A stretch of 64,000 bases of DNA from Methanothrix sp. (GTDB taxonomy: Archaea; Halobacteriota; Methanosarcinia; Methanotrichales; Methanotrichaceae): the NCBI GenBank assembly GCA_963682135.1, contig OY821645.1, positions 2,784,001 through 2,848,000 of the forward strand, given 5' to 3'. Positions 21,831 to 52,181 of the stretch are shown here, one piece after another (the stretch's first letter is position 1; every line of letters begins with the position of its first letter). The notes under the pieces were generated by a model that did no database searches, was not told the origin of the DNA, and worked only from the letters and a program-made list of their open reading frames with translations. Made by a program: the position numbers and the translations under genes.

Positions 21831-23195
21831 TTAACTCCTTATTTTTATAATTAAATTCCTCATTAATTCTTCACATTCATCCAATTTATTAGTTTTTATA
21901 TTATTTAAAAGAATCTCCTGGTTTCTTTCTACTCTATATATCCAAAATCCTTCAGGAGAAGCTACTACAAAGCTTTTCATCCCTAGCAAGAGCGAATAGG
22001 ATTTGGCTTGTAGAACTGCTTTCTTAAGTTGAGATTCATTGACTATTTCTAATTTATCCTCAAATAAAGTCAAGTCTCCTTTCTCATCTTGAATAATAAA
22101 ATCTACGTAGCATGTGTGATATTGGCTTCCTACTGTAAAATAACATGGATATTGCCTTTTAAATTTTAATCTCCAATGCTTTAACAAAGGCTCAATGATT
22201 TTATCCTCAAATTCTTCTTCTGAGGAGTAGGTCCCAGAGGTCGCTTCTTGGCCTATAGATTCAGGAGATAATCCTAATCTTTCATAGACCTCTTTTCCTA
22301 TTTTCTCTAATAATCTATTATATATTGAATATGGAATTGTTCCTGCTGTTACTCCCTGTGATTGAGCTTTGACAAAACTCCAATTATTTAATACTAAATC
22401 ATGTTTCATCTCTATCATTGTAATATCTCTAATCGAAGTAATTTTTCTTAGAGGAACATAAAAACCACCCCACCCCAAATACGCATCAAAATAAGGTTTT
22501 CCAGACACTTTATATATTTCTGTGATTGCTTTTCTTGGACTCTGCCTATACATAAATACTAAATCACCAATCTGCATTTCTTTTCTACCAGACCATGTAG
22601 TTTCAATTTCGTTATCTAAGCTACTAAAATCTTTAGGACTTGATACTAATATCCAGTATCTGTTATAATTGTTTTTATCGAAAAATAATGGTGCTAAAAC
22701 ATCAAATAGAAAGTAATTAATCCTTTTCTGAATAGACTTAGGGTCTTCCAGATTTGGCCATGTATCATGTGAAAACGAAAGTAGAGCTTCATTTAAGATC
22801 AGGTAATTTTCAAAACTATTTTTGTTATGTCCAATTTTGGAAAATGAAAACTGAAATTTCTCATAGATTTGACTGAAAAATTTGAATCCTGCAAAGATTT
22901 CATTTTCTAAAAAAGATACTCTATAAAATAAATATTTTTGTGGATATAAATAATTTAGTGTTAAAGATATATTCGATATGTTATTTTTAAAAGTCTCCTT
23001 TAGGATTGATATAACAGCCCCCTCGTCTACTATGTCTTTTGAGGTGACAACAAGTGGTAAAGAAATATCTCTTCCAGAATTAATCCCTGAAAGCAAAACC
23101 TTTAGATCTCTCTTCCACACATCAACATCATAGCATCTCTCTGCATTTCGTTTTACATCTTCTATCAGCCAATTCAATATCAATTCATCATTCAT
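21831..23195 (-). CDS. EVE-domain + PD-(D/E)xK (HsdR_N-like) nuclease; putative modification-dependent restriction enzyme
   Basis: YWIL..W..MQIGDLVFMYR EVE/PUA-like motif; C-terminal SEEEF..VDFII..LFEDK..QAKSY; very AT-rich. Confidence 0.7.
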   Translation of the reverse strand: MNDELILNWLIEDVKRNAERCYDVDVWKRDLKVLLSGINSGRDISLPLVVTSKDIVDEGAVISILKETFKNNISNISLTLNYLYPQKYLFYRVSFLENEIFAGFKFFSQIYEKFQFSFSKIGHNKNSFENYLILNEALLSFSHDTWPNLEDPKSIQKRINYFLFDVLAPLFFDKNNYNRYWILVSSPKDFSSLDNEIETTWSGRKEMQIGDLVFMYRQSPRKAITEIYKVSGKPYFDAYLGWGGFYVPLRKITSIRDITMIEMKHDLVLNNWSFVKAQSQGVTAGTIPYSIYNRLLEKIGKEVYERLGLSPESIGQEATSGTYSSEEEFEDKIIEPLLKHWRLKFKRQYPCYFTVGSQYHTCYVDFIIQDEKGDLTLFEDKLEIVNESQLKKAVLQAKSYSLLLGMKSFVVASPEGFWIYRVERNQEILLNNIKTNKLDECEELMRNLIIKIRS

Positions 23196-23356
23196 ATATT
23201 ATTCTTCCGTTAAGCCCATAGCTTCATTTTTAACATGGATGGCAATGAGTTCTCTTCAAAGCATTTTCTATTATTAGATTGCCCTTAGTCAGAGCGTTTG
23301 CACTATTGCATCACTGAAAAACTCTCAATAAAAAAATACATAGAGCCAAAATCCGG

Positions 23357-24222
23357 TCACAGCATCAGGAATTGTTCATATTTCTGGCGTTTGGTCTGGT
23401 CGCTGATATGTGAATACCTGAGTGTTGTTCTTATATCACTATGGCCTAGAATTTCCTTCACTCTGCTTATATCACAACCGGCTACTATCATCATGGTTGC
23501 CGTCGTATGCCTCGCGAATACATGTACACCCACGGCCTTTTCAATTCCTGCCTTTGCTTATACCGGGTAAATAAACGGTGTATTTCAGTTCGTTGCCATC
23601 TTTTTCCATATTCCGTAAAGAATAGAGGTTCTCTATCATCAAGGAAAATAAAGGTTTTAATTCAAGATAACGGCGAAGTGTCGCGGCACATTCGTTGTTA
23701 ATAATTAATAAGTGCAATTCTATCTTTACCACGTTTAACGTTACCGATTCTAATTGTCAGGCGCTTTAAATCAATATCCGGGACATCAATATTGCATAAT
23801 TCGCTTGCCTGTAGGCAGGCATAAAATACAGTTTGTAATATCGCGAGATGTTTAAGGTTCTGGATTACACTGAATATTTTAATAACATCGTCTTTATCGA
23901 AATAGTGAGGTATTTGGTTATTAGGTTCAAGTCGTTTGACTTCTATTTTCTCTCCTATCATCGCGTGGTAAGCTCGTATGGAATATTTGTATTGGTTCTT
24001 GGTAGACCTCGATGCTTTCCTTTCGGCTAAAATGTCTCTAAAGAGTTCTAAGTCTTGGTTCGATGGCCTATCGCTTTGCGCGAATTTGAGATATCTTCGC
24101 ACGTTTCCTAAATAACCGGTTACAGTGGCTTTCCTCATCCCCTGGCCTTCAAGATATCGCCGGAATCTCTTCAAAGCCGGTTCAAAATCAGTTGTAATTT
24201 TTATATCAAAATTTATATTCAT
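23357..24222 (-). pseudogene. Tyrosine recombinase/integrase, multiply frameshifted
   Basis: SAM-like N-domain; CLQASEL (catalytic R replaced by Q); KRGKDR; in other frames RHTTAT, LGHSDIRTTLRY; lies directly 3' of the tRNA. Confidence 0.85.
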
Positions 24223-24319
24223 TATCTGCAAATATAAATCTCCTGGGAGAAAAGGACACAATCCTGTAACACATAGAGAATCATCCGAAACAAAAATCGC
24301 TACCAAAAGAGCACTTTTA

Positions 24320-27024: not shown

Positions 27025-27528
27025 TCAAGAATAGCAGGCTTTTTTTCTGAGGTGGTGATCGATCCAGGCCGAGATCTGTCTTCTTCTGGTATAGCCGAAG
27101 AATACGAGATAAGCCAGGCCTGCCGTTTCCGGTATCCAAACGGCGGGATTTTTCAGGCCGCAAAGAAGCATCTCCAGGTAGCTCATGGTATCCAGAAGCG
27201 GCGCGCTGGGAAATGGCCCCAGGATGGGCCAGAGCAATATCTCCGGGGAATTCCACATAAAGTCCAGAGAGAGGTGGACCAGCACTCCCCAGGCCAGGGA
27301 GAAGAGCCTGATATCCTGGAAATGCCAGCATAAGGCAGAAAGGATCATGAGGAAGAGGAGCGTGTGGGCGAAGGTGCGGCCCATATTGGGGCTGCCGAAT
27401 ACTATCAGGCCCAGGGGTTTATCGATGATGTCGGGCAGCATGGAGCCCAATGCCAGAAAGGCCAGGCTCACGCGGCTAAAAAAGCGGGCTGTTGCTAGAG
27501 CAAGGCCTACATGGGCAAAGAGAAGCAT
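27025..27528 (-). CDS. Membrane-bound metal-dependent hydrolase (YdjM-like)
   Basis: FAHVG, GSMLPDIIDKPLG, GRTFAHTL, HLSLD. Confidence 0.85.
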   Translation of the reverse strand: MLLFAHVGLALATARFFSRVSLAFLALGSMLPDIIDKPLGLIVFGSPNMGRTFAHTLLFLMILSALCWHFQDIRLFSLAWGVLVHLSLDFMWNSPEILLWPILGPFPSAPLLDTMSYLEMLLCGLKNPAVWIPETAGLAYLVFFGYTRRRQISAWIDHHLRKKACYS

Positions 27529-27764
27529 TGGGCAGAGAATCGTTCGCTTAGATATTTAGCTATTTTGCGGGGTCTCTACTTTTTGAAAAAATTATGCCCA
27601 TGGACAGAAGCAGGCTGATGGATCGCGATTTTTGGCAGCGTAATCTGTCTCACTGGCCGCTATGGTGAGCGAGGATGATTGTTGCGATTTTAATAGAAGT
27701 GAGCCAACCACAACCTTTTTAATGTATCTAGCGGCACTCAATACTAATCTCAATTACTACGATA

Positions 27765-28036
27765 GTGGGAGATGATACGGAAAGGAGTACCAGATCCTTA
27801 ATAGCAGAGGGTCAGGGAGGGCTTCGCCGGACACTCACACCTCGCAAAGTGAATCCAAGCGGGTTGCTGAATTGATGCAGCCTTGATCCATTCGAGGCTG
27901 ATGATGGCGAAAGTCATCAATGGTGATAAGAGGCGCCCAGGCTTAGCAGCCAGGGCTGTAGATTTTGCTCCTCTGGGGCGGAAAGCGGATTACTATCAAA
28001 TGGCTGCGCTACCCTGCGGAAAGCATCGGGTATCTT
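27765..28036 (+). ncRNA. Candidate structured non-coding RNA (unassigned)
   Basis: ORF-free GC-rich block with many hairpins, including TGATGGC-GAAA-GTCATCA, and three CGGAAAG motifs; T-rich TATA-like box at about 27716. Confidence 0.45.
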
Positions 28037-28064
28037 TATCATGTTTATAAAGCCTGAGGGGGGC

Positions 28065-28916
28065 ATGTTGTGCTTGAAGTGGGTACTGATTCTCATTTAT
28101 ATTCTCATGGCTGCATTGTTGATTGGAATCACTCAGAGCGCGGAAAATTATTATGAAACGACAGAGGATGAAGGCCTCCGGTTCAGTTCCAATCAGACGG
28201 TGGAAGGGTTTGGAATTGCCAGCTCATACATGTGCATGGATTCAGCAAATCGGGTGCTTCATTCTCATAGTAGTGGTAGCGGTGTCTTCAGCAGTGAATC
28301 CAAAGCCATGGTCCGGGAAGGAGTAGTCACAAAATTGAATCCTGGTTCGTTCTCATCAAACACAGGTGTTGGATTTCAAGAGAATGCCAGCAAAGCCTAT
28401 TCCCCAACGAGACTTGATTTTCCCGGAAGCTTTCATTCCAGTCCAATCAGCTCTTTATGGAGCGATTCCACAATTCTCTATGCCGGGGGCGATAAAGTCA
28501 CGGCTCTTGAAGCAAACTTTGATCAGGTGCAGGCTCTGAACAAAGAGATGAAAACAACTACTTCCGGAAACGGGGCCTATGAAGATACGTCGTCATCCAC
28601 TTCTTTTGCGGGAAGCATGGACCTTAATGTCGTATTCAATGGCACGGGGCAGATCGGTGCGTATGTAGGACCGCTTGACGGGAATAATCCGGATGTTTTG
28701 ACGGACAGGTACTACTTAGTCGATAATTACTATCGAGGCGCTTTCACCATAAGCAACAAGATGAAGATTGGATATAAAGCAACTCTCCGACAAGAGGAAG
28801 CTGAGTGGATGCCGTGCTGCTCGGGCGGCTGGGCAAGCATGAATTACAAAGAAAAAGAGAGTTTTCCGGTCGATGTGAACAGGGTATTCAATTGCACTTG
28901 CTTCTCAGTGCCTTAA
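28065..28916 (+). CDS. Secreted hypothetical protein with C-terminal WMPCC...CTC motif
   Basis: Signal peptide after a GAGGGGG SD; Ser/Gly-rich, beta-type sequence. Confidence 0.7.
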   Translation: MLCLKWVLILIYILMAALLIGITQSAENYYETTEDEGLRFSSNQTVEGFGIASSYMCMDSANRVLHSHSSGSGVFSSESKAMVREGVVTKLNPGSFSSNTGVGFQENASKAYSPTRLDFPGSFHSSPISSLWSDSTILYAGGDKVTALEANFDQVQALNKEMKTTTSGNGAYEDTSSSTSFAGSMDLNVVFNGTGQIGAYVGPLDGNNPDVLTDRYYLVDNYYRGAFTISNKMKIGYKATLRQEEAEWMPCCSGGWASMNYKEKESFPVDVNRVFNCTCFSVP

Positions 28917-31386: not shown

Positions 31387-31569
31387 ATGGATGAGATTGA
31401 GGTAGTTTATGAGAAAGGTATTTTCAAACCCTTGGGGTTTATCGACCTTAAAGACGGTACTAAAGCAGTTGTAGTAGTGAGACCTAAAGGGATAGCAGAT
31501 GTGCTGGAGAAATTCAGCAGAAAAGTTGACAAGGATGTTCTAAAAGAGTTCCTGGAGGAGAGAAGGTGA
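31387..31569 (+). CDS. AF2212/DUF104-like antitoxin
   Basis: [19 protein letters not shown]; overlaps the PIN gene. Confidence 0.82.
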
Positions 31570-32015
31570 TAGTTGTTGACACTTCTGTTTTTCTTGATGA
31601 ACTCTTCAAATTTGATCAGAAAAGGCATGACAAAGCCAGAATCTTATTCCGACTTATTGAGGAGAAAGACGTTCTAATTGTGGAGCCCGAGATATTTAGA
31701 GTAGAGCTGATTGGGCAGCTTGTTAGAAGGATGAAAAAGGATGAGGCCACTGTATTGTATGAATCCATTGTTGAGCGGCTTGATTTTATCAAAGCAAACG
31801 ATTTAGGAGGGGTTGCTTTTTCAATAGCCTTTGAGACCGGCTCAAGGGCAATCGATGCTTCTTTTATAGCTGCTGCTAAAATAGGGGGTTCTCATTTGAT
31901 ATCAAACGATAAAACGCAGGTAGAAAGTGCAAGAAAGTTCGGAGTTGAAGCCTATTATCTACTTGACGAATTTGAAAATGTTAAAGAAATGATGAAATGC
32001 AGTATAATTTCATAA
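31566..32015 (+). CDS. vapC: PIN-domain (VapC) toxin
   Basis: VVDTSV, conserved [17 protein letters not shown]. Confidence 0.87.
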
Positions 32016-32299
32016 AACCACCAGCATCTCATGGTCGGATAACATGCCCAGGCTGACAGAAAGTGCATCTAACGCGCATTCAATGAGCTCTTCTGAGGCG
32101 GATGAGATGGACCAGATGCGAGACAAAAAGCTTTTTAAATCACTACTGAAATTAGGAAAGTACGTAAGAAATCAGTTGCTTGTTGACGGCTAAATCGGTC
32201 ATCGTCTGAATTGAGGCTATGATAAGAGGGGATGACTGGATAGCCGGGGCTTTAGAGATTCTATTTTGATATAACCAAGACAACGAGTTTGATCATATC

Positions 32300-32658: not shown

Positions 32659-33222
32659 ATGATGAAGCTCATTGCATTTGTATCCGGCAAAGTCCAGGAG
32701 GTTGGCTATCGAGCCAGGATAGTCGATATAGCCAATGCAATTGGCCTCAAGGGCATGGTCGAGAATCAAAAGGATGGCCGGGTGAAGATAATCGCTGAGG
32801 GCGAGGATGAAAAGCTCAAATGGTTTGAGAGTGCCATAGATATAAAGAATACCTTGATCTATGTCTCGTCCATTGAAACGGTATATTCTCCTGCATGCAA
32901 TGAGTTCGACAATTTCGGCAAGCTGGTGGTTAAAGGCGAGACCGACAGTAGGCTAGACACGGCTGCAGTCTATCTAAAAGAGCTCGTTTCTGTGGTCAAG
33001 AATATGAATGATAACCTGGGCGGCAAGATGGACCAAATGCTCGGCAAGCAGGATCAAATGATCGATAAACAGGATCAGATGCTCGGCAAGCAGGACGAAC
33101 TTCTGGATGAAGTCAGGGATATAAACGGGAAGTTCGACAGGGTGCTGGAAAATGATATCGTTGAATTGAAGAACGATATGGCCGAGGTAAAAGCCGCTCT
33201 GAGAGAAAAAGGAATAATCTAA
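32659..33222 (+). CDS. Acylphosphatase-domain protein with heptad coiled coil (copy 4)
   Basis: VSGKVQEVGYR, GMVENQKDGRV; 4 GKxDQM[LI]-type heptads; ALREKGII; TTTATA about 27 nt before the ATG (possibly leaderless). Confidence 0.85.
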   Translation: MMKLIAFVSGKVQEVGYRARIVDIANAIGLKGMVENQKDGRVKIIAEGEDEKLKWFESAIDIKNTLIYVSSIETVYSPACNEFDNFGKLVVKGETDSRLDTAAVYLKELVSVVKNMNDNLGGKMDQMLGKQDQMIDKQDQMLGKQDELLDEVRDINGKFDRVLENDIVELKNDMAEVKAALREKGII

Positions 33223-50529: not shown

Positions 50530-50855
50530 AGAGGATGACAAAATCAGAGGTTAACATGAATCCTCGATTGGCTAATGGTCTCATAAACGAAAACCAATGG
50601 ATCTGGACATCAAGCTCGGATATGAAACGCCCATGCGCCCCAGGCAGAGGCTCACACGTGACGGATGGAAAACCACATATTGTAATCCGTTCACGTTAAA
50701 TGTGGTTATGGGCAGTGAAGGCTGACAAGTTTATGGGACGGCTGATCCCGCGATTGAAACGAGCCAAGATCCCCCGAATACGGGACTGCGTCATAGAACG
50801 CGTATGGGAAATTATCTCATATCAGGGAAACATCATCTGCCCATACCAGGCAGAA
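50530..50855 (+). ncRNA. Candidate IS110 bridge RNA region (strand inferred)
   Basis: Upstream non-coding region with hairpins; 50665-50679 is the perfect reverse complement of the element right end 52202-52216. Confidence 0.55.
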
Positions 50856-50861
50856 ATGTAT

Positions 50862-52181
50862 ATGAAAAAACGAAGAGATAGAGTTTGCGGTGCAGATGTC
50901 CATAAAGATTTGATCGTGGCAACAATAACAGGCGATGATTTTCAACCGATTCGAATGGATTTTGGGACAACGAAAACTGAACTTAGGAAATTTCGCAAAT
51001 GGCTGGTAGCCAACAAATGCGAACAGGTGGCATTTGAGGCTACTGGAGTCTATTGGATACCGATCTATGATGCATTGAGCAAAACCATAGATACAATCGT
51101 TGCCAATCCGTTGCAGATAAAGACTATTCCCAACGACAAATCTGATTCAAAAGACTCAAAGCGGATTGCATCTCTTTGCCTGAACAATCAAATCAAGCGC
51201 TCTAGGGTATTTACCAATGAAGACCGAGATCTCAGGACTCTAACTCGAGCCAGGTCCGGATATGTCAAGACACGAACTCAGTTCCGGAATCGGATACACA
51301 AATACCTTTCATCATGCGGGATCAAACTCAGTTCTTGCATGGACGACATATTCTGCAAATCCGGCAGATATATTTTGGACGGTCTGGCAAAAAAGAAGTC
51401 CATCGAGAAGATCTTGAAAGGCATCCCATCCGGAAAAATAAGGAAAAAGCAAGACGAAATTAGGGTAGCACTTGAAAGAAGTCTTGATGATACAAACAGA
51501 ATGCTCTTAATAGATGCCCTGGAATTCATTGATAATCTCGAATCCAAAATAGAAAAGCTGAGCCATGAGGTCCTGAAAAAGATTCAGCAGAAGAGCAAAG
51601 ACCTGGCCATCGTCATGTCAATTCCAGGAATTGGATTCGTATCCGCATCGGCCATATTGTCTGAAATTGGAAATTACCGTGATTTTCAGACACCTGACCA
51701 ACTCGCTAAATGGTGCGGCCTCAATCCTGGAGAAAGCGAATCTGCGGGCAAAAAGAAAAAATGCGGAATTACAAAGAAGGGTTCCAAGTACATTAGAGTT
51801 ATGCTGGTTCAGGCTGCAAAGACCATCGGAAGAATGAAAAATACACGGCTTTCCAGGTTCTTCCAGAGGTTGGTCAAAAAGAAGGAGCCAAATGTAGCCA
51901 CTATTGCTGTAGCCAGGAAGCTTATCTGTCTCATTCATCATCTTCTTATCAACCAGGAGCTGTATCAGGAAGGTGAATGCAGATCGAGAGGAGCAAGTCA
52001 GGATAAGTCCTGCCAGGCACCTTCATTTCAGGATGAGCAATTGACGGATAGAGTAGCTGCAATTGTGGACGCCTTTTATCACCTGAAAGAGGGCAGCAGG
52101 AAGAATGCTCTTATGCGTGAGCTTGGAGCCATTTCTATAACAAAACCCGGCCAGAAAAGGCCATCCGGGGGAGGTGAATAG
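50862..52181 (+). CDS. IS110-family transposase/recombinase
   Basis: GADVHKD, FEATGVYW, KSDSKDS (DEDD); SIPGIG, GLNPGESESAGK (catalytic Ser region), AVARKL. Confidence 0.93.
   Translation: MKKRRDRVCGADVHKDLIVATITGDDFQPIRMDFGTTKTELRKFRKWLVANKCEQVAFEATGVYWIPIYDALSKTIDTIVANPLQIKTIPNDKSDSKDSKRIASLCLNNQIKRSRVFTNEDRDLRTLTRARSGYVKTRTQFRNRIHKYLSSCGIKLSSCMDDIFCKSGRYILDGLAKKKSIEKILKGIPSGKIRKKQDEIRVALERSLDDTNRMLLIDALEFIDNLESKIEKLSHEVLKKIQQKSKDLAIVMSIPGIGFVSASAILSEIGNYRDFQTPDQLAKWCGLNPGESESAGKKKKCGITKKGSKYIRVMLVQAAKTIGRMKNTRLSRFFQRLVKKKEPNVATIAVARKLICLIHHLLINQELYQEGECRSRGASQDKSCQAPSFQDEQLTDRVAAIVDAFYHLKEGSRKNALMRELGAISITKPGQKRPSGGGE

Follow-up and report, generated by a model that had tools for sequence, protein, structure and literature searches.

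A 64,000-nucleotide (nt) stretch of the Methanothrix sp. genome (contig OY821645.1, positions 2,784,001–2,848,000 of the forward strand; hereafter the window) carries, between two divergent genes, a block that is, on comparative sequence evidence, a genuine strand-specific structured RNA element. The block belongs to an undescribed archaeal RNA family that is absent from Rfam 15. An earlier note on this DNA had proposed a novel structured RNA at 27765–28036; conservation and covariation uphold the proposal, and orthologue alignments relocate the conserved unit to 27704–27966. The defining feature, which that note missed, is a kink-turn helix made of the invariant strands CUGAAUUGA and UGAUAAGAGG, with a covarying stem to close it. 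The block may be a cis-acting, protein-bound leader of envelope-glycan clusters and hitch-hiking cassettes, a reading that we hold tentatively and to which we give somewhat less than an even chance.

Two covariance models were used: R1, built from the long-form alignment, and R2, a model of the minimal module. The constant module in 56 R1 matches is approximately 75 nt long and consists of a stem of free sequence, P1, around CUGAAUUGA/UGAUAAGAGG, a short linker and a hairpin with AGC/GCU pairs. Nineteen nucleotides of this module are invariant, and they are conserved over several orders.

Structure and conservation of the RNA

The core of the window's copy spans 27858–27962 and comprises P1, the invariant strands CUGAAUUGA and UGAUAAGAGG, and a short 3′ hairpin, Pc, with invariant AGC/GCU. 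The features of the block, from the transcription factor B recognition element (BRE) to a terminal T-run, are as follows.

27704–27724 (+): BRE and TATA box (TATA at 27716–27723), near-invariant in full-length orthologues
27744–27764 (+): A/U-rich 5′ leader of the RNA, conserved in 11 of 11 full-length orthologues
27765–27845 (+): variable 5′ domain with predicted nested stems, including GATCCTT/AGGGTC (RNAalifold)
27858–27868 (+): P1 5′ strand (27858–27863), UU bulge (27864–27865) and GCU extension (27866–27868), paired with 27932–27943
27869–27875 (+): GAAUUGA, 5′ strand of the non-canonical helix, invariant in alignments A2, A4 and A6
27872–27875 (+): UUGA within GAAUUGA, the non-bulged, D-box-like kink-turn strand
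27878–27900 (+): hairpin Pa, an apical-loop insert of the long form only; eight pairs, 93.4% paired, two compensatory
27902–27919 (+): hairpin Pb, long form only, GAAA loop in this copy; six pairs, three compensatory
27922–27931 (+): bulged kink-turn strand, GGU followed by GAUAAGA; UGAUAAGAGG is invariant or nearly so
27932–27943 (+): helix-extension 3′ strand GGC (27932–27934), G27935 and P1 3′ strand, supported by covariation
27946–27962 (+): 3′ hairpin Pc, GCAGC-CAGG-GCUGU, then AGA; AGC/GCU conserved
27963–27966 (+): T-run, a likely partial archaeal terminator; a terminator scan flags Pc with the T tail (predicted)

The 3′ strand of P1 is made up of 27936–27938 and 27941–27943, with an AG bulge at 27939–27940.

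Covariation was measured in three alignments, two of them structure-blind MAFFT alignments. Among 17 long forms, 93.4% of cells form standard pairs, compared with 27–40% for slid partners, and nine pairs show double changes against 1.9 ± 1.2 in shuffles, with none of 500 shuffles as high. The 23 short forms (MAFFT) gave 92.6% paired cells, with slid controls at most 50%, and 46 double-change cells, where shuffles gave 14.4 ± 3.0 and none of 500 came as high. Across 30 sequences from several orders, 85.3% of cells are paired and 42 show double changes against 16.1 ± 3.5, again with no shuffle of 500 as high. Over the three alignments, slid controls paired at 27–51% and the proposed structure at 85–93%. 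All 30 sequences of this multi-order alignment keep a U.G pair, and that pair ties the fold to the plus strand. The AGC/GCU pairs of Pc are invariant in the 17 long forms and present in 26–27 of the 30 diverse sequences, and the outer Pc pair covaries.

The earlier note had named a folding energy no better than that of shuffled controls as grounds for rejecting the RNA. The minimum free energy (MFE) of 27765–28036 is indeed no better than that of shuffles on the plus strand (z = −1.16, 27 of 200 as good) or the minus strand (z = −0.74), and the comparative evidence reverses the outcome. Folding energy is uninformative here in either direction; conservation and covariation are strong.

The helix formed by the invariant strands appears to follow the scheme C-G, U.G, G.A, A.G, A.A, U-A, U.U, G.A and A.G, in which the tandem G.A/A.G pairs would have sheared geometry. 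The GA of UUGA and the GA of UGAUAA are invariant in A2, A4 and A6, and GAUAAGA with its preceding purine gives a C-box-like RUGAUAA. The apex takes the form UUGA ... RUGAUAA around a loop of 5–9 nt, always ending in AU or GU before GA, in 45 of 97 distinct modules. In the simple hairpin-insert forms, a stem starts directly after UUGA, and 1–4 nt, never 0, stay unpaired before GA; the exact bulge size in these forms is ambiguous because of G-rich slippage. Pa and Pb are insertions in the apical loop of the window's long copy, where the canonical helix at the kink-turn gives way to a three-way junction; Pa does not occur in short forms. As modelled, this geometry matches the kink-turn definition of a 3-nt bulge, a canonical (C) helix and tandem G.A pairs given in PMC5499556, and the C/D box consensus RUGAUGA / CUGA given in PMC5539422. 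The helix would be a platform for a protein, most probably L7Ae; the genome itself encodes two L7Ae-family genes.

The first model contained an outer kink-turn with a GCU bulge at 27866–27868, and it was rejected because the position beside the CU/GG pairs covaries as a base pair (UA 14, GC 7, UG 5, CG 2 and GU 1 in the 30-sequence alignment). A local GCUG/CAGC hairpin likewise conflicts with covarying pairs.

Three of the nine stems listed in the earlier note hold, and the others conflict with covarying pairs or lie in unconserved sequence. CAGCCT/AGGCTG (27879–27899) is Pa, with the pairing given above and compensatory changes at two pairs. TGATGGC-GAAA-GTCATCA (27902–27919) is Pb; its stem stands, with three compensatory pairs, and its GNRA loop is unconserved, being replaced elsewhere by GATT, AAGT or AGGT. 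GATCCT/AGGGTC holds weakly. The stems TCAC/GTGA, GGTTGC/GCAGCC and TGGTGAT/ATTACTA fell away on one or the other ground, as did the terminal hairpin at 28011–28032, and the three-way junction CGCCCAG...CTGGGGCG conflicts with covarying pairs. CGGAAAG does occur at 27778, 27979 and 28017 (13 copies in the whole window against 7.9 ± 3.0 expected). Orthologues keep none of the three copies as such, so that the motif is incidental and a protein sponge with repeated GGA motifs is unsupported.

Outside the core, conservation is uneven. The 5′ domain has 19 predicted pairs, two of which show compensatory change (RNAalifold, 11 sequences); it is deleted or replaced in four orthologues (L006, L019, L021 and L008) and is dispensable for the family. 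The leader at 27744–27764 bears a 4-nt deletion in two of the 11 full-length orthologues; G024 has no 5′ domain and still retains the leader. Conservation begins at the BRE/TATA box, sequence further upstream being unconserved, and the T-rich, TATA-like box reported near 27716 proves to be a conserved archaeal TATA box with its BRE. From promoter spacing, the transcription start is predicted near 27745–27750, at about 27746. Conservation in several species ends right after the T-run at 27963–27966.

Distribution and genomic context

No Rfam 15 family matched at gathering thresholds in the 64-kb window; within 27500–28200, a search at E up to 10 gave only two chance-level C/D matches, of 11.7 and 12.5 bits against a gathering threshold of 38. 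A full-text literature search, which did not extend to subscription-only papers and supplements, found no description of the motif.

The stretch is single-copy within its own genome by BLASTN. Homologues in other species of the genus show 73–84% identity, and the search that had been suggested for them was productive: 18 of 59 genomes, its own included, match by BLASTN (E ≤ 1e-5) and 33 of 59 by R1. R1 also detected the element in 27 of 74 genomes of the family and in 0 of 76 in other families of the class. The last figure is a sensitivity artefact of the long-form model, and confinement to Methanotrichaceae is refuted by the pattern scan and by R2 matches in other orders. When one genome per species was scanned for the exact pattern, true modules, having both P1 and Pc, turned up in Methanothrix and other Methanotrichaceae, Methanophagales (ANME-1, anaerobic methanotrophic archaea), Methanoperedens, Methanocellales, Methanosarcinales, Thermoplasmata, Hydrothermarchaeota and others. 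In 15 module genomes the forward pattern occurred 1–9 times per genome and the reversed-pattern control 0 times in 15 of 15; G177 and G183 reached nine copies. In a sample drawn evenly from the phylum, R2 matched 10 of the 150 other genomes, patchily and in five families. A wider contig pattern scan, for which we estimate a chance expectation of approximately 270 matches, yielded at least 125 loci, all kept out of every count here, and bacterial pattern matches without P1 or the 3′ hairpin were treated as chance.

A motif regular expression found four copies in the Methanothrix genome, all four of which R2 also detects. The second copy in the window is a short, kink-loop (K-loop) form. The following features accompany the long copy on its downstream side.

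27967–28064 (+): spacer to the start codon, with the second and third CGGAAAG, the 28011–28032 hairpin and the Shine-Dalgarno sequence GAGGGGGG
28065–28916 (+): first cluster gene, encoding a 283-amino-acid (aa) protein with a hydrophobic, signal-like N-terminal segment
32191–32264 (+): second, short (K-loop) copy, 74 nt; R1 24.7 bits, E = 6.5e-4 with filters off; R2 E = 6.7e-11

The short copy has its own TATA box near 32130–32139, a following T-run and a P1 of GUCAUC/GAUGAC, and it sits between a PIN-domain gene (31566–32015) and an acylphosphatase-like gene. Two more short copies lie outside the window at C1:2862387–2862458 and 2862698–2862764 (minus strand), approximately 300 nt apart. The former shares its promoter and 5′ region with the window's short copy, and downstream of the latter lies a gene whose start resembles a signal peptide. 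In four species, a degenerate third copy type with an altered 5′ strand (GAUGUAAAUAGA-like) and a long loop lies approximately 1 kb downstream of the long form (L022:545–647, L023:2480–2582, L025:2522–2625 and L028:2357–2460) and is followed by a UPF0175 antitoxin-like gene; covariance-model searches detected no such copy in this window. Three ANME-1 or Methanosarcinales loci from metagenome-assembled genomes (L200, L203 and L198) have a further conserved hairpin, of the type ACAAACCUUU-loop-AAGGUUUG, approximately 10–45 nt past the module.

The block lies, as first described, between divergent genes: a YdjM-like membrane-protein gene (27025–27528, minus strand) and the secreted-protein gene on the plus strand. 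It is effectively free of open reading frames (ORFs), those that overlap it being only 40–59 aa long. It is not GC-rich, since its G+C content of approximately 50% equals that of the genome. The likely true start of the secreted-protein gene is the ATG at 28065, with the Shine-Dalgarno sequence at 28056–28063, and its 283-aa product matches no Pfam or NCBIfam family. The spacer in front of it is conserved in part only and is gone from five of the orthologous loci (L004, L005 and L015–L017). Among 19 orthologous loci, the divergent YdjM gene is retained in 16 and a secreted-protein homologue follows the RNA in nine; in the remaining ten the RNA is kept without that gene, and thus does not depend on it.

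The long copy heads an all-plus-strand gene run of 25 kb (28065–53467), along which G+C falls from approximately 0.50 to 0.31–0.40. This cluster encodes glycosyltransferases of families GT1, GT2 and GT4, two UDP-N-acetylglucosamine (UDP-GlcNAc) 2-epimerases, Polysacc_synt_2 and other epimerases or dehydratases, together with a DegT aminotransferase, a B12-radical SAM enzyme, membrane proteins, a PIN gene and an IS110 transposase. The last is an IS110-family gene at 50700–52181 (plus strand). Upstream of the RNA, G+C dips sharply to 0.337 at 22001–24306, adjoining a 202-aa phage-integrase fragment (23698–24306) with matches to the N-terminal and catalytic domains; the dip and the fragment look like an integration scar approximately 4 kb from the RNA.

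Outside Methanotrichaceae, 56 distinct modules had 1.5-kb flanks, and a same-strand ORF of at least 60 aa began within 420 nt in 42 of them. Ten of these 42 neighbours are glycan-related: five GT2, one GT4, two UDP-glucose/GDP-mannose dehydrogenases, an ABC-2 permease and a DUF1616 protein. With only 14 GT2 matches in the whole 3.04-Mb genome, five GT2 neighbours represent a strong excess, two of the five being paralogous loci of one genome. Toxin-antitoxin or other small selfish genes and proteins without a Pfam family, considered below, make up most of the others; the rest are one acylphosphatase-like protein, two others (TrmO and L18Ae) and four too short for the scan. Neighbours scanned within Methanotrichaceae include GT2 (three), Epimerase_2, that is, UDP-GlcNAc 2-epimerase (two), TPR (two), acylphosphatase-like proteins (two) and a UPF0175 antitoxin-like protein. 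The closest downstream ORF of at least 100 aa, sought up to 600 nt away, runs in the same direction as the module in 50 cases and in the opposite direction in seven; 12 cases have no such ORF.

Candidate functions

In the favoured reading, the long-form RNA would be transcribed from its own BRE/TATA promoter, starting near 27746, and would serve as a cis-acting 5′ leader for the co-directional glycan cluster at 28065–53467. P1 would close the invariant non-canonical helix capped by the kink-turn, to be followed by the 3′ hairpin and, in these methanogens, by the T-run. The kink-turn helix would most probably bind L7Ae and possibly a further factor, and protein occupancy would set transcript passage beyond the T-run, translation, or both. 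According to PMC5539422, reporter expression falls when L7Ae binds to kink-turns in the leaders of archaeal mRNAs, and the bound leaders include that of a hypothetical glycosyltransferase mRNA. Of the three proposals in the earlier note, a structured leader for the secreted protein fits best, given the 50 of 57 co-directional genes and an RNA-library contig that runs through the T-run, and it needs amending in that 10 of 19 loci keep the RNA without that gene.

The RNA evidence consists of assembled contigs, from 27890 onwards, from two low-depth metatranscriptomes of two wetland studies, with no coverage of 27500–27889. One contig (27890–28084) bridges the T-run and the start codon; a second covers 27973–28176. 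In Methanotrichaceae, a run of at least four T occurs within approximately 40 nt past Pc in 33 of 48 copies, compared with nine of 48 for at least four A, and in the 51 nt upstream in eight of 48. In other lineages only seven of 18 copies have such a T-run past Pc. On the sense strand of 28041–53467, runs of at least six A number 33 and runs of at least six T nine, an excess that is consistent with selection against oligo-T terminator signals inside archaeal operons.

Several observations weigh against a cis-acting, L7Ae-bound leader. Toxin-antitoxin or other small selfish genes account for 12 of the 42 downstream neighbours (MazE, PIN, HicB-like, MNT, HEPN, DUF433/DUF5615, DUF5678, DUF4258, SatD and three PD-(D/E)XK) and 13 of the 42 have no Pfam family; nor are these counts independent, as they include paralogues and close relatives. 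Orthologue G042 has A for the outer G of CUGA. L7Ae is abundant and constitutive, and hence offers no obvious signal to sense. The RNA-library contigs have a depth of 2.6–3.5 and might derive from DNA in the library. Sense-strand runs of at least six T are no more frequent in the cluster (0.35 per kb) than genome-wide (0.39 per kb), so there is no sign of a special need for read-through control. Finally, the promoter of each copy, the Methanotrichaceae T-run and the variable 5′ part would suit a stand-alone small RNA equally well.

Such a trans-acting small RNA is a serious alternative, which we consider possible though rather unlikely. Its constant 3′ scaffold, made up of P1, the kink-turn helix, the hairpin and a U-tract, would bind a protein, and its variable 5′ region (35–110 nt) would pair with targets. 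Most copies carry a BRE/TATA box of their own, 60–110 nt upstream of P1, and several copies occur per genome, four here and up to nine in G177 and G183. The 5′ regions of paralogues differ while the module is constant, the long form is kept where the downstream gene differs, and the T-run follows 33 of 48 Methanotrichaceae copies. A trans-acting RNA would not, however, require either the co-orientation (50 of 57) or the recurrent glycan neighbours. In eight loci of other lineages, the module begins 1–13 nt past the stop codon of a conserved gene for a 120-aa zinc-ribbon protein, a gap that leaves no room for an own promoter or a 5′ guide region. Furthermore, the T-run is not enriched outside Methanotrichaceae, and one RNA-library contig crosses it.

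The leader hypothesis has a more ambitious form, which we regard as unlikely. The module would then be the RNA component of an unrecognised archaeal system for flagging the 5′ ends of mobile glycan operons and toxin-antitoxin cassettes and licensing their expression, via a kink-turn ribonucleoprotein (RNP) on the nascent leader. L7Ae and a dedicated partner would make up the RNP, whose target would be either the polymerase during transcription or the message. The partner might be an acylphosphatase-like coiled-coil protein, which is possible from its position, or the 120-aa zinc-ribbon protein. If correct, the system would be an archaeal counterpart of RfaH/ops or EAR RNA.

The acylphosphatase-like protein of the window (32662–33222, plus strand) has 186 aa. 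Its N-terminal domain is acylphosphatase-like but diverged, with an active-site-type motif of KVQEVGYR, and its coiled-coil tail carries DQM repeats. In 15 of 89 loci, among them loci of Hydrothermarchaeota and Thermoplasmata, a homologue is encoded no more than 1.5 kb from a module; this low count, owed mostly to Methanothrix synteny, led to its rejection as a constant partner. The zinc-ribbon proteins, of approximately 120 aa, fall into no Pfam family; their 103 relatives in the database are without exception annotated as hypothetical. The family is represented by the gene at L211:1101–1490, with equivalents in L197, L212, L229, L231, L233, L237 and L240. It was likewise rejected as a constant partner, as the copy in the Methanothrix genome (C1:402307–402651) adjoins an acetyl-CoA synthetase gene with no module nearby.

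A riboswitch, in which the invariant helix and 3′ hairpin would form an aptamer for a glycan metabolite such as a nucleotide sugar and the hairpin and T-run an expression platform, seems decidedly unlikely. The 5′ position and the coherent neighbours (GT2, GT4, UDP-sugar dehydrogenase and UDP-GlcNAc 2-epimerase) would suit it, as would the invariant nucleotides set between covarying stems and the hairpin with T-run after the module. Several bacterial riboswitches also contain kink-turns. The invariant nucleotides are nonetheless accounted for by the kink-turn and tandem G.A pairs, a protein-type site. Loops and linkers vary, with an apical loop of anything between 5 nt and two hairpins, and no multi-way junction is conserved. 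The 12 toxin-antitoxin-type neighbours among the 42 and the lineage-specific T-run also speak against a riboswitch, and no alternative (switching) pairing turned up, albeit without a systematic search.

It is very improbable that the element acts as DNA, as a recombination or cassette-boundary site of glycan islands that folds as single-stranded DNA like integron attC. The modules do occur in variable low-GC islands near toxin-antitoxin and PD-(D/E)XK genes, here with the integrase fragment at 23698–24306 and IS110 at 50700–52181; gene content downstream of the orthologous site varies between species, and tandem copies lie 300–370 nt apart. However, attC sites are imperfect inverted repeats with R″/R′ core sites, have an integrase nearby and belong to promoterless cassettes. 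The present element has a conserved promoter at a fixed upstream distance and a consistent orientation to genes, its invariant sequence obeys C/D-box-like RNA kink-turn rules, it apparently lacks the R′/R″ consensus, and in the loci examined no recombinase or integrase gene is consistently linked. P1 is free to vary in sequence, which fits a structural stem better than a crossover site. That the block has no function of its own, being a conserved promoter or untranslated sequence or an unrecognised small protein gene, is hardly credible: the MFE z of only −1.16 and the overlapping 40–59-aa ORFs would allow it, and compensatory changes across orders, core indels of 1–2 nt between orthologues that would break any reading frame, paralogues that share the module only, and the reversed-pattern control (0 in 15 of 15 genomes against 1–9 forward) contradict it.

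We know of very few cis-regulatory or structured non-coding RNA families in archaea, and of nothing on the control of archaeal surface-glycan gene islands. The motif is small, sharply defined and conserved over methanogens, the methane-oxidising ANME-1 and Methanoperedens, Thermoplasmata and others. The motif would give Rfam a further family and help to annotate intergenic regions in environmentally important archaea, and it could point to kink-turn RNPs as a general means of gene control. As the envelope of Methanothrix and ANME matters for aggregation and electron-transfer partnerships, a regulator of the cluster would be of ecological interest.

Comparison with known RNA systems

Several known kinds of archaeal RNA were considered and set aside. 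RNase P RNA and signal recognition particle (SRP) RNA are both encoded elsewhere in the genome, at 216 and 193.5 bits, and the block matches neither model, in agreement with the earlier reader, who had seen no such signature. In H/ACA small RNAs (sRNAs), a pseudouridylation pocket separates the lower and upper stems, a K-turn or K-loop sits higher up, and an ACA/ANA box follows the hairpin on its 3′ side. The module has no internal pocket, P1 entering the non-canonical helix with a bulge of only 1–2 nt, and the AGA after the 3′ hairpin is not conserved outside Methanotrichaceae. A box C/D sRNA would need terminal C/D boxes and guide spacers of approximately 12 nt, whereas the module has only an internal D′/C′-like pair and scored 11.7–12.5 bits against 38 for the Rfam C/D models.

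Bacterial polysaccharide operons have leader elements of their own, namely ops/JUMPStart with RfaH and the EAR RNA of the Bacillus eps operon. These too are conserved 5′ leader elements of long, horizontally variable, low-GC surface-glycan operons. They show no sequence or structural likeness to the module, and no NusG/Spt5-type partner was identified; the analogy to RfaH/ops or EAR is attractive by position only and has no direct support.

Closer parallels are found among archaeal kink-turn RNAs. The C′/D′ K-loop of archaeal box C/D sRNAs has the same order of D′-like box, short loop and C′-like box. Its G.A, A.G and U.U pairs are alike, and the G-C pair of the boxes is replaced in the module by A-U (UGAUAA / UUGA); the helix of the module runs into a stem, not into guide regions. 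As described in PMC5499556, the double kink-turn module in P12 of euryarchaeal RNase P binds two copies of L7Ae. Like the present module, it carries in one arm a pair of tandem G.A motifs with a three-pair helix between them. In P12, successive turns share a helix, the non-canonical (NC) helix for one and the C helix for the other, and a 3-nt bulge belongs to each turn, whereas the outer G.A motif of the module would have none.

The nearest relatives are the kink-turns to which L7Ae binds in archaeal mRNA leaders, known from l7ae autoregulation and from RIP-seq in Sulfolobus (PMC5539422; PMC6298567). In these, as in the module, one C-box-like and one D-box-like strand make up a kink-turn within a 5′ untranslated region. 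The known examples are short, poorly conserved in sequence, and gene- or lineage-specific. The present element, a putative L7Ae site, is by contrast a discrete module of approximately 75 nt with a second tandem G.A motif, a closing stem and an obligatory 3′ hairpin, and it recurs in multiple copies linked to glycan and toxin-antitoxin genes and not to l7ae or nop5.

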